DNA of 62,091 nt, filler included, from Globobulimina sp. (lineage: Eukaryota): the NCBI GenBank assembly GCA_003354225.1. It is 28 parts of 28 records of this genome, joined end to end, with 100 filler letters (N's around TTAATTAATTAA, not from the genome) between each part and the next. Parts side by side here need not be neighbours in the genome. Positions count along the whole stretch, not along the records: positions 31,111 to 33,231 come from PIVH01008832.1; 27 more parts are not named here. One strand, given 5' to 3'. This document shows positions 28,890 to 33,231 of the stretch, in pieces. Numbering within the stretch: the first letter of the stretch is position 1; the number at the start of each line of letters is the position of its first letter. Below the pieces are notes generated by a model. The model made no database searches. It saw only the letters and a program-made list of their open reading frames with translations, and had not been told where the DNA came from. A program made the translations under genes and the position numbers.

Positions 28890-30915
28890 TGCATTCATTT
28901 CGCCTCATCGTCGCTGAAATGGAACGATTATGACTGCAACAATGCTTTTCAATTTCTATGTAATTATCCAAAATATTTCTATGTAGTAAACGATAATATT
29001 AAACATAAAAGACATCCAATTTCATCATATTCCATTGGAACAATTAATATTTTGGATGAACTTATTATAACTTTTGATTTTATCATATATTCCTATAATA
29101 GCAATATAACCGCATCGTTGTTATCTATATACAATGTGATGACAAATAAATTGTTACCAGACATTGCTTTGGATACTTCCACACAAAGTTTGTCGGTAAA
29201 CTTTAATGGTAACATACGTTCCTCAGCTAACAATGCATTAACATTCGATATTTTGCATCATTTTGAATTGCATGCTACACAGAATAGTCTAATATCAATG
29301 ATTGATAATTCAACAATACACAATGACAACAATATTGCATCGCACGTTCTCTATCAAAATCAAAATATTTACGTAAATGGTCCATTGAATGGATATATAA
29401 CAAATTTGAACATTGCAACCAGTAATTCATATATTACTCCATTTAATTATCTCTGTGATTATAACAATCGATTCAGTGCATTTCGAGGTTCCTGGTCCTA
29501 TGACGAGTCAAATTGTCGCGTTGAACAAAGATTAGGTTATTCAGTAGAGGCCTACTCAATGATTACCTGGTTAGGAGATATAGATTCAACTTCTATGGAT
29601 TGGACTGATTATAAAATCGAAATTGTAGTTAATGTCCAATCCGGCACAGAAGCCGGACTTATATTTCGTGCACACGCTGAGTTCCAATATTATTCTTGCA
29701 CTGTAAATCCAACTGACGGAGGTATATATTCTTTGTTAATTGTCACATGAAATATGTTTTATTTTGTTATTCAAAAAATTAAAAGTTATTTGTGGCGTAA
29801 TCAAACCAGATTGGACAATGTTAAACACCCAATACACTCAAATTGATTATTATACAGACACTACACTACGAATTGAAGCAATATCCGATTCATTTGCTAT
29901 TTATGTAAATAATGAGTATTTTTTTACAATGAATCATGGTGCATTTAGTTCGGGAAGCATTGGTTTAATGACATGGCAAGGAACTGCAATATATAAATCT
30001 GTTAGAATTATATTTCCGAATAATAATAATGCGATAACTTTCAATCCGACAATATCTCCAACCAATAATCCAACCGATCAACCGACTGATAATCCAACAT
30101 TTAATCCAACTTTTATTCCGACAGTATTCCCAACAAATAATCCAACACAACAACCAAGCACTGCACTACCAACCACAGCAAATCCAACATCAAATCCTAC
30201 AAATAATCCAACAACATCTCCAACCTATTTACCAACAAATAATCCAACATATTTGCCAACAAATAATCCAATAACAATGTCGCCGACATGGCTACCAACG
30301 CAAACTACAGAAATAACAAATAAAATTAATAAAAAATATGCAACTGATAGAGACACAATGTATTTCGCAATATATGGTGTTATTTGTGGTTTGATATTGG
30401 TAGTTTGTGGAATAACTATTTTTATGATGTATAAAATAATAAAAAATAATTCAAAAAAAAGAAAAACAAATATTAAGAACGTTCTGTCTGTATCATCCAC
30501 ATCAATCCCAATGAATGCTGTGGCGTTTAATAAAATGAATACTGTGACAGATGAGAGTAGACTCAGTAGAGATCATTTTGGAAATATTTTAAGTGAGTTA
30601 GTTGTTGGTAATGCCATGGTAATGAAGGACAGAGTTAATATCATTATAAAAGAGAGTCCAATGCAATTACAACATGGGCAGTCACAGAATATTGAGCAAA
30701 TCGTAAAGCAGGTACAATATGATGATGTTGTTGAAATGATAGAAATGGATAATACGCGCAATTGTAATATGAAAGACAGTGCAGAAGGAACAAATCCAGA
30801 GATAACAGATCCTGAAGGGACAGATGAAGGGACAGATGAAGGAACAGACCCTGAGGGATATGGAACTGATCCATACGATGATATCTTTGATGATAAAGTG
30901 TCGACTTACAAATAA
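28890..30915 (+). CDS. Type I membrane protein: concanavalin/LamG-like beta-sandwich, PTxx mucin-like stalk, TM helix and acidic tail; intron 29722..29785; 5'-partial
   Basis: WTDYKIE...AGLIFRA...LRIEA....IYVN...SGSIGL; many (N/S)PT repeats; TM segment FAIYGVICGLILVVCGITIFMMY. Confidence 0.8.
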
Positions 30916-31110: not shown

Positions 31111-32345
31111 ATGGCAACATTTAAACGATCGGCTGTTTAATTTTACAAATTCCGTCATTAATTCCACCATTTCTTCATATCTCTCTGCTGATTCACAAAC
31201 TTTTGCCAGTCTCTCCAACTCATTTGGATCGCAAATAAAATCTAACACACCAATAATGCGGCAATATCTTGCTATCTCTTCATACAATTCATTGGGAAAC
31301 GTTTTTAGTATTCCTCCATTATGATTCATTTCAAATTCTTCAAACAACCAAACATTTATTACTTTGACGGTTAAACTCTCTTCAAATAATTTATTCATTT
31401 TGCCTTTTTTACCATTTATATTTGGTTGGGATAGGCTCGATTTTATTGCCTGTTTTCGCTGGAAATATACTGTTTGTTTTTCAACTTCATAGGATTTGAA
31501 TGTTTGCTGATGGTCACACTTTGATTCGTCAATGCTAATAAGTTGAGAGGAATACATAATATCTGAACGTATGCAGTATTTAAATATATTCCCTCCATTC
31601 TCGTTTCCATTGTTTAATACAACGGAGCCTTCGTGAAATAATTCTTTTTGTTCAAATAGTAAAACCATTCCAGTTTGAGGCTTAATTGAATGTGTTTTTT
31701 GTTGATTGGTTGGATGCAGAAATGTGATTTCACCGCCATTATAATTATCATTTAAATATATTAAAATCGTAATTAATGATCGCTGTCCATTATTTCTAAT
31801 GTTTGTAATTGTATATTAAAGAAAACACAAAAAAGATATATGAATTAACCTCATATACATTCCATCATAATGAGCACCGAAATACTGCGAAGGAGCATAT
31901 CGTAGAAACCGTAATCTTTCGTTGATGTCGACCATCTTTCGGTTGTCAAATTGCTTTGGAATGACAGATTTTATTCGATTAAAAATATAATCTGCAATTT
32001 TTGGATTATCAAAAGTTAATTTTTTATGGTTTCTGAATAATTTCATTGTTTCGGTGTGTCCAAATCCTAAATTTACCAAAGCATCTTTGTAACCGATATT
32101 TTCGCTCAGTTCTATCAATTCTTTGCATTCTGCTTCACTGTGTTTAATATCATTTGCGTTATAAATCATATAAAGTTAAACATTTCATGTACAAACCTGA
32201 ACGCGTTGGGTATTACTACAACATATTTATCCTTTAACGATGGTATTCCAATTTGAATACCGCGTGCAGTCAATTTGGGTCCACTAACTTCATTTTCTTG
32301 CATAAAAGAAGGGACTAAACAGCTTGTTCCTGATGCTTCCGCCAT
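31111..32345 (-). CDS. 2OG-Fe(II) oxygenase (prolyl 4-hydroxylase-like) fused to a 14-3-3-like domain; introns 32138..32196 and 31796..31849; 3'-partial
   Basis: FSEAECKELI, LRFLRY....FGAHYDG, TILIYLN...GGEITF, P.TGMVLLF...HEG, KY.IRSDIMY, then in frame LAKVCESAERYEEMV. Confidence 0.85.
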
Positions 32346-32418
32346 GTTACTTTCACAGTTTTGGTGATCGCGTTGATTATTTAAGCTCTTCAAACAAAAA
32401 CTCTACGTTGATGTCTTG

Positions 32419-33231
32419 ATGACAGAAACCGGCGCAAATTCAGGCAAAGTGACAGTGAAACAGTCGAAATGTTTGTTGACAGCAAAGAAGAAAGAAGAAA
32501 TATCTTCCTCATTATCCTCAAATGAAGCACCAATCAAACAATCAGAACCTACTCGTTGGGTTGTATTAGGATTATTGTGTGTCGTTATTTATTCATTTGT
32601 TTACTGGTATGATATAATATATATGTTCAGAAGAAATCCTTTATTTTGATGTTTTGACACATGCACAGTTACGATAATCCATTTGCGATTCAAAATCAAT
32701 TAATTGATGATTTTGGTTTAACACAGACCCAATACAACTTATTATATGGCATCTATGGTTATATCAATATGGTAGCACCATTTATTGCCGGCTTAATGGT
32801 GGACTGCATTGGCATTAATAGCTCGACACTAATATTTTACATATTTATTGTGTTTGGACAAACTGCATTTATAATATCTGCCTTTGACAAAATTTCCTCG
32901 TATCCATTGATGCTGATTGGCCGTTCCGTGTTTGGTGTCGGCGCTGAACAGTTTCATTTATCGCGAAAGTGGTTGTTATATGAATATTTTACTGGCACTG
33001 AATATTACTTTGCGTCTGGCTTATCACTGTCATTCAGTCGGTTGGGCTCCGCCTCGCAATCCTATGTTTCGACAATAATGTATGACAAATATGGCACTGT
33101 AGTCGCTGTGCTAACCATTGGATGGATATTGGTGGTGATGTCCTTGATTTTATTACTTTTGTTTTTGTGCTTGCAAAAGAAATGTCTGCCTAGCTCGCAA
33201 TTGGCAAAAAGTGAGGACATTGGCAGAGGTA
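32419..33231 (+). CDS. MFSD1: MFS transporter, MFSD1-like; intron 32607..32668; 3'-partial
   Basis: RW..L...Y(C)YDNP.A.Q, YNLLY.IY...N, G..VD..G, GR.VFG.G.E. Confidence 0.8.

Follow-up and report, generated by a model that had tools for sequence, protein, structure and literature searches.

The 14-3-3 proteins are classic stand-alone phospho-readers, the prolyl 4-hydroxylases (P4Hs) and PHD enzymes are classic oxygen-dependent modifiers of proteins, and cross-talk between the two is normally indirect. Joined forms of the first kind have been described: dictyostelids, Acanthamoeba, lancelet, sea urchin and Capsaspora have PARP4-like VIT/vWA proteins to which a 14-3-3 domain has been added (PMC4245714). 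Here we describe a gene of Globobulimina sp. (GenBank assembly GCA_003354225.1) in which a P4H-like 2-oxoglutarate (2OG)/Fe(II) oxygenase is joined in frame, through a family-specific linker, to the start of a 14-3-3 domain. The gene sits on a single contig, 31111-33231 of the window (the whole stretch of 62,091 bases that was analysed). The in-frame structure of oxygenase, linker and 14-3-3 domain is strongly supported, and the fusion is almost certainly real and made as one transcript.

The gene lies on the minus strand and has three exons, amounting to 1122 nucleotides or 374 codons without a stop up to the contig end. Its ATG at 32345 is the first downstream of an in-frame stop. Evidence for splicing comes from assembled contigs of four public runs (X1, X2, X6 and X7) aligned to this contig. 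The parts of the gene are as follows.

32345-32197, minus strand: exon 1, the 49 N-terminal residues plus 2 nucleotides, with no hydrophobic stretch resembling a signal peptide; covered by X2 record 9 and X7 record 22.
32196-32138, minus strand: intron 1, 59 nucleotides, GT..AG, phase 2; absent, with exact borders, from one X2, one X6 and one X7 contig.
32137-31850, minus strand: exon 2, the N-terminal half of the oxygenase, with H139 at 31872-31870 and D141 at 31866-31864.
31849-31796, minus strand: intron 2, 54 nucleotides, GT..AG, phase 2; absent, again with exact borders, from one X2 and one X6 contig.
31795-31528, minus strand: first part of exon 3, the C-terminal half of the oxygenase, with H200 at 31635-31633 and R222 at 31569-31567.
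31527-31228, minus strand: middle of exon 3, the family-specific linker of about 100 residues, without a Pfam match.
31227-31111, minus strand: end of exon 3, the first two 14-3-3 helices, after which a Cys/His-rich loop begins (NSRSFKCCH) and the contig stops.

One contig of X2 (record 9; 1,406 nucleotides) spans 32345-32197, 32137-31850 and 31795-31111 with both introns removed, and crosses 31111-31795 unbroken with 5 differences. It extends 284 nucleotides beyond 31111, X7 record 19 goes 171 nucleotides past the same point, and X6 contigs also pass it. Intron 2 is absent from X6 record 17, and intron 1 from a separate X6 contig and from X7 record 22, whose 5' untranslated region extends to 32372. 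The unspliced form is found in X1 record 4, X1 being the probable source DNA run, and the spliced contigs derive from two studies. Coordinates, GT-AG introns and frame are therefore as a sequence-only reading of this DNA had claimed, on the minus strand and with the introns removed at the same borders in X2, X6 and X7. A chimeric join within 31200-31500, which that reading had named as the finding that would overturn it, was not seen, X2 record 9 crossing the region in one piece. A second version of the linker and 14-3-3 start (31111-31403), about 90% identical, is present in X1 record 2 (21 differences in 229 nucleotides) and X2 record 10 (26 in 276). In X1 it departs at 31403, which suggests a paralogue with another upstream part.

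The oxygenase is recognised by Pfam from exon 3 alone as PF13640 (2OG-FeII_Oxy_3; E 3.6e-8, 34.7 bits against a gathering cut-off of 27). The iron triad, H139-x-D141 with the distal H200, is present together with R222, bearing out the earlier description of a complete P4H-like oxygenase with all four residues. From its position, R222 would be the basic ligand of the 2OG C5 carboxylate. In the family alignment the HxD, distal His and Arg are kept in the window gene, in its relatives P0002, P0006, P0007 and P0010 and in stand-alone oxygenase relatives, and the HxD of the window gene aligns to that of the Bacillus anthracis P4H via the relative P0005. No region of the protein is better conserved than the oxygenase, which shares 142 of 185 aligned residues with P0006. 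Among solved structures the B. anthracis P4H (3itq, 5hv0) comes closest in sequence (E 1.7e-6), and PHD matches only at E 0.18.

An AlphaFold model of P0007 has two confident domains, with a mean predicted local distance difference test score (pLDDT) of 84.2 and a predicted template-modelling score (pTM) of 0.54. In a fold search its residues 11-239 match protein prolyl hydroxylases, which have the double-stranded beta-helix fold. The Z values are 17.2 for the Pseudomonas putida EF-Tu P4H (4iw3), 17.0 for the Trichoplax PHD (6f0w), 16.8 for the Chlamydomonas P4H (2jij), 16.6 for human P4H-TM (6tp5), 16.4 for OGFOD1 (4nhx), 16.2 for PBCV-1 vCPH (5c5t), 15.1 for Dictyostelium PhyA and 14.9 for PHD2. 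As these values are tied within 2, they do not assign the protein to either the HIF-PHD/PhyA oxygen-sensor branch or the collagen/EF-Tu branch. The protein is probably cytosolic, unlike collagen-type P4Hs, because its N-terminus has no signal-peptide-like hydrophobic stretch and a 14-3-3 domain is present.

At its other end, the translated tail of the gene (LERLAKVCESAERYEEMVELM...) matches positions 1-26 of the PF00244 profile, with E 0.0031 (17.6 bits) for the 235-residue translation of exon 3 and E 0.00053 (20.1 bits) for the last 98 residues. These scores fall under the 33.2-bit cut-off because the contig carries just 26 of the 223 profile positions. Exon 3 is stop-free to 31111, so the last exon does run openly through the linker into a 14-3-3 start, as had been proposed. 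The start comprises 39 residues on the contig, 26 of them identical to P0006. In the relatives PF00244 is complete, scoring 209.5 bits in P0006 (E 6e-62), 226.4 in P0007 (E 4e-67) and 214.2 in P0010, and P0007 and P0012 align residue for residue with human 14-3-3 gamma (E 1.6e-58 and 1.5e-32). The expected extension as 14-3-3 is borne out in every relative that reaches that far; for the window's own copy, continuation past 31111 is judged via these relatives. The Lys, Arg and Arg-Tyr residues, corresponding to the phosphate pocket of human 14-3-3 (zeta K49, R56, R127 and Y128), have been retained in P0006, P0007, P0010, P0008 and P0012. This is the K-R-R-Y pocket named in the sequence-only reading; it is lost in P0039, and the window copy ends before it. 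Judging by the conserved residues, both domains are probably biochemically competent.

The 14-3-3 part of the P0007 model superposes on human zeta (5wxn_A) with Z 29.0 and a root-mean-square deviation of 1.5 A over 228 aligned positions, at 49% identity. When two copies of P0007 residues 270-579 were predicted together as a homodimer, the score was 0.33 against 0.01 for the best of 3 controls, with at least 43% contact agreement between runs and a partner pLDDT of at least 73. Of 30 homodimers with solved structures, 21 attain the mark used in this test, and of 23 solved single chains none does; on eukaryotes it is attained by 17 of 29, and by only 1 of the 7 without an older solved relative. 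In the predicted interface, helix A (326-336) packs on helices C and D (390-401 and 413-425). Since 14-3-3 dimers are already solved, the predictor may have memorised them, and the result is evidence of likeness only.

The last residues on the contig, NSRSFKCCH (31111-31137), are unlike 14-3-3 yet typical of the family. Of the five relatives spanning this loop, four (P0006, P0007, P0008 and P0009) share a Cys/His-rich sequence (S.SFKC.C/H ... C) followed by helix C, RNLLSVA(F/Y)KN, and P0010 has a different insert at the site. Compared with human 14-3-3 gamma, P0007 has 18 extra residues here, between helices B and C, and canonical 14-3-3 proteins lack the loop. It could be metal-binding or redox-sensitive.

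The same architecture recurs in several relatives. A word-indexed search of longer proteins gave 3 matches among 578 candidates, including P0006 (614 residues, 64% identical over 97% of exon 3) and P0007 (579 residues, 57% identical over exon 3). Both of these, as well as P0010 (603 residues, 43% identical), carry PF13640 and a complete PF00244. An exhaustive HMMER search of 1.84 billion representatives returned 392 matches at E<=0.001 and only 9 at E<=1e-10, P0010 among them. With full-length P0007 as the query against proteins of 318-1,014 residues there were 618 matches, and in the best 120 of these 618 PF00244 and PF13640 were found together in P0007, P0006 and P0010 only. P0002 (340 residues) has the same order of parts and stops shortly after entering the 14-3-3 domain, some 20 residues short of the point where the window gene is cut off. 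The window gene aligns with its fusion relatives along its whole length. Within the window, a tblastn search with P0006 and P0007 matched the fusion gene at 31111-32345 only. A metagenome scan with exon 3 found 30 loci, all of them limited to oxygenase residues 1-102 and none with the linker or 14-3-3 part, and the ESM Atlas gave no usable match.

Several relatives come from foraminiferal transcriptomes in EukProt, those of Bolivina argentea (P0007, P0002 and P0039) and Nonionella stella (P0156, P0012 and P0009); rhizarian transcriptomes were where the sequence-only reading had suggested looking for the fusion. The remaining relatives are from ENA, Logan, JGI and NCBI records, and the fusion architecture itself is seen in four further sources (ENA, EukProt, Logan and JGI). 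One 90% cluster (P0007/P0156) mixes Bolivina and Nonionella entries, which makes the species attribution of P0007 unsure and suggests either cross-contamination or a third organism common to both. In a quick tree of 36 14-3-3 domains, a weakly supported branch (71 in the Shimodaira-Hasegawa-like approximate likelihood ratio test, SH-aLRT) has the six family members together on one side. The family lies in a well-supported set of ten (98) with a 14-3-3 protein of Reticulomyxa filosa (P0223) and three multidomain 14-3-3 proteins. P0039, P0012 and P0010 are on long branches, that of P0039 being very long (5.64), so their placement is unsure. The foraminiferal relatives and the company of Reticulomyxa filosa in the tree support a rhizarian origin, and the hydroxylase-14-3-3 architecture appears so far only in foraminifera-like protists. 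P0039 and the short P0004 (133 residues, without the distal-His segment) look like decayed members of the family.

The linker is conserved in blocks: SYEVEKQ..YFQR, then KMNKL..SLT.KVI..W (SLTVKVI..W in the window gene), then FPxELYEEIAxYCRIIGVLDF. It is identical to P0006 at 53 of 98 aligned residues and to P0007 at 44 of 92, and the family alignment shows no variation in its W, F, P and I columns. The SYEVEKQ..YFQR part, N-terminal of the conserved Met in KMNKL, is kept as protein in 7 relatives. Two AlphaFold runs predicted helices in the linker at low confidence (pLDDT 37-61 for P0007 residues 231-320, and 44-60 for P0012). Since F-boxes accompany related oxygenases (P0106), the linker was suspected of being one. 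PF00646 matched none of 11 members of the family at E up to 10, a search in which the HMMER filters may drop weak matches, and an hhalign comparison of the linker alignment with three F-box segments gave 0.1% probability, so the F-box reading was rejected. The linker was also considered as an internal 14-3-3-binding site, and its conserved K-S....P does not fit the 14-3-3-binding motifs. The conserved Met (31398-31400) lies in the region where P0012 and P0039, which have no oxygenase, begin; it could be an internal start for an isoform of linker plus 14-3-3, or P0012 and P0039 could be separate paralogues. In P0008 (656 residues, from a JGI contig of 2406 nucleotides) the same linker and 14-3-3 domain follow a 300-residue N-terminus without detectable similarity to the oxygenase. 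A decayed oxygenase was considered for this N-terminus and rejected, its best BLASTP E against P0005 being 1.9. Either the linker and 14-3-3 module also joins other heads, or the P0008 gene model is wrong.

As to how the fusion works, we favour client-targeted hydroxylation as its actual mode of action, at a probability of roughly 0.45. One cytosolic protein would combine an N-terminal P4H-type oxygenase using 2OG, Fe(II) and O2, the linker of about 100 residues and a C-terminal 14-3-3 domain. The 14-3-3 half would dimerise via its first helix, like ordinary 14-3-3 proteins, and would clamp phospho-Ser/Thr motifs of client proteins, so that clients are held beside the tethered hydroxylase. Hydroxylation of a client residue, probably a proline, would then depend on the availability of O2, Fe(II) and 2OG. 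With clients held by their phospho-motifs, phosphorylation would choose which proteins receive the oxygen-dependent mark. What speaks for this functional reading is the conservation of the catalytic and phosphate-binding residues. The proposed role of the 14-3-3 half in targeting is an analogy with the fusion of P4H-like oxygenases to an F-box adaptor in other protists (P0106).

Several observations weigh against client-targeted hydroxylation or the evidence beneath it. The module of linker and 14-3-3 domain also occurs without the oxygenase (P0012 and P0039) or behind the unrelated N-terminus of P0008, which implies that the module has a role of its own and that the linker belongs with the 14-3-3 half. 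The Arg-Tyr pair is gone from P0039, and the pocket of the window's own 14-3-3 copy lies beyond the contig end. The geometry between the domains is not predicted, given the pTM of 0.54 and the linker pLDDT of 37-61, and the active site may not reach the 14-3-3 groove. Lysyl hydroxylases (Z 15.2-15.3) and nucleic-acid enzymes of the AlkB type (13-14.5) come close to the prolyl hydroxylases in the fold search, which cannot separate prolyl from lysyl or other protein hydroxylases. Lastly, the X2, X6 and X7 contigs are read as complementary DNA because they are spliced, and the run labels say only '?' or 'RNA?'.

A more specific form of client-targeted hydroxylation, quite unlikely in our view, would wire phospho-signalling directly to oxygen sensing, with the hydroxylase modifying a proline beside the phospho-site held by the dimeric 14-3-3. 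Canonical 14-3-3 motifs have a Pro two residues after the phospho-serine. If this were true, a second mark dependent on O2, 2OG and iron would be written only on proteins already phosphorylated, and it would amount to a foraminiferal, lineage-specific form of oxygen sensing, unrelated to HIF-PHD and Skp1-PhyA. The Cys/His-rich loop of the 14-3-3 domain might bring in redox or metal control. Foraminifera live across oxic-anoxic boundaries and are notable for thriving in low-oxygen sediments.

The rival to client-targeted hydroxylation that survives best, which we consider unlikely, is that the 14-3-3 half serves the enzyme. It would be a dimerisation scaffold, or a regulatory clamp on a phosphorylated segment of the protein itself, of an activator or of an inhibitor that turns the enzyme on or off, and the hydroxylase would act on an unrelated substrate. 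The predicted dimer uses the canonical interface of helix A with helices C and D, as this would have it, with the caveat on that prediction given above, and the conserved Ser-rich stretch of the linker (IKS..QP) could hold phospho-sites. There are also stand-alone oxygenases of the same clade without any adaptor (such as P0011, P0019 and P0024), so substrate recognition may reside in the oxygenase domain. However, by eye the linker K-S, with its P six positions on, does not fit the mode I or II 14-3-3 motifs, and the full pocket and a groove that is near-canonical (49% identity to zeta over 228 positions) are more than a pure dimeriser needs.

It is very unlikely that either the oxygenase or the 14-3-3 half is inactive, a pseudo-enzyme or pseudo-reader, and the gene a structural or scaffolding paralogue of an expanded family. 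The family has indeed expanded and is decaying at its edges, as seen in P0039 (without Arg-Tyr, on its branch of 5.64), in P0004 (without the distal-His segment) and in P0008 with its unrelated N-terminus, and the linker-region paralogue of about 90% identity in X1 record 2 and X2 record 10 adds to this. Against it, all catalytic residues are kept in the window gene, P0002, P0006, P0007 and P0010, and the oxygenase is the part of the protein that has been conserved best.

An artefact, either a chimeric contig or adjacent oxygenase and 14-3-3 genes read through by chance, is hardly credible and already largely refuted: the contig is just 2.1 kb in a highly fragmented assembly, X1 contigs break at 31343/31345, the paralogue departs at 31403 and the conserved KMNKL Met is at the start of P0012, but X2 record 9, from another study, is unbroken over 31111-31795, 235 codons are open in DNA of 33% G+C, the linker before the conserved Met is kept as protein in 7 relatives, and ENA, EukProt, Logan and JGI sources hold the same architecture.

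The surroundings of the gene are limited by the make-up of the window, which consists of 28 contigs of 2,119-2,123 bases ordered by size, with N/TTAATTAATTAA spacers between them and 33% G+C. The contigs are unrelated, so genes flanking a spacer have no genomic relation to each other. The contig of the fusion gene carries one other gene.

32395..33231, plus strand: gene for a major facilitator superfamily (MFS) transporter (PF07690 MFS_1, E 1.4e-13), with its ATG at 32419, cut by the other contig end.

This gene is divergent from the fusion gene and lies outside the fusion, the two ATGs (32419 and 32345) being 73 nucleotides apart. Its intron of 62 nucleotides (32606-32667) is spliced out in X2 record 11 and X7 record 23. 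In the assembled contigs of the public runs the 5' ends of the two genes are about 22 nucleotides apart (32372 and 32395). On the adjoining contig, a 391-codon open frame (29740-30915, plus strand) has PT repeats (PF04886, E 3e-9) as well as a hydrophobic segment and an acidic tail, and is unrelated to the fusion.

Full-text literature searches, supplements not covered, found no description of an oxygenase-14-3-3 fusion. In the portions of foraminiferal transcriptome papers that were available, again without supplements, '14-3-3', 'prolyl hydroxylase' and '2OG-Fe' had 0 occurrences, and no HIF-like system came up in the sections of the foraminiferal literature that were searched. What is new is the combination, as both domains are textbook families and 14-3-3 fusions as such are already in print. 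A covalent fusion with the key residues kept would imply substrates that phosphorylation selects and oxygen modifies. The fusion is conserved down to 43% identity, in sources that are all foraminifera-like, and might be a concrete candidate for foraminiferal oxygen sensing. If true, phosphorylation-oxygen cross-talk could become directly testable with one recombinant protein. If the 14-3-3 half only dimerises, the fusion is a modest curiosity of domain architecture.

Among known systems, the oxygenase half shares its fold, the HxD...H motif and the basic 2OG ligand with the P4Hs of Bacillus anthracis, P. putida (PPHD, 4iw3), Chlamydomonas (P4H-1, 2jig/2jij) and PBCV-1 (vCPH, 5c5t), and with PHD/EGLN and PhyA (6t8m). 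P4Hs of the PF13640 type match the P0007 model at Z 15-17, and none of those listed here is fused to a phospho-reader, unlike the fusion. The N-terminal peptide-binding domain of collagen P4H is not seen in the fusion, nor is a signal-peptide-like stretch. The 14-3-3 half is likewise close to its namesakes, as the C-terminal 250 residues of the relatives align end to end with human gamma (4j6s) and zeta (5wxn), and the pocket Lys, Arg and Arg-Tyr and the DSTLIM.LLRDNLTLW end are kept. It differs in that it is not stand-alone, about 335 residues of enzyme and linker being joined straight to the dimerisation helix, and in the extra Cys/His-rich insertion between helices B and C that the window gene and most relatives carry.

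That 14-3-3 proteins normally stand alone, as the sequence-only reading put it, is usually so; enzyme-14-3-3 fusions are nonetheless in print (PMC4245714), and two vWA + 14-3-3 proteins (P0216 and P0234) were seen in this analysis, their 14-3-3 domains falling in the same tree set of ten (98) as the fusion family. Like the fusion, the PARP4-like and vWA + 14-3-3 proteins hold a complete 14-3-3 domain inside a larger multidomain protein. Their partner is a vWA or PARP domain rather than an oxygenase, and they are without the SYEVEKQ/FPxELYEEI linker. As a separate observation, P0222 of Umbelopsis vinacea has a 14-3-3 domain followed by an oxygenase of a different type (DIOX_N + 2OG-FeII_Oxy), and may be a merged gene model. 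The P4H-like + F-box + actin-fold proteins of amoeboid protists (P0106, P0126 and P0128) also place a related oxygenase at the N-terminus (P0106 matching exon 3 at E 5.2e-6), followed by an adaptor that recruits proteins. There the adaptor is an F-box, which docks SCF ligases, whereas in the fusion it is a 14-3-3 domain.

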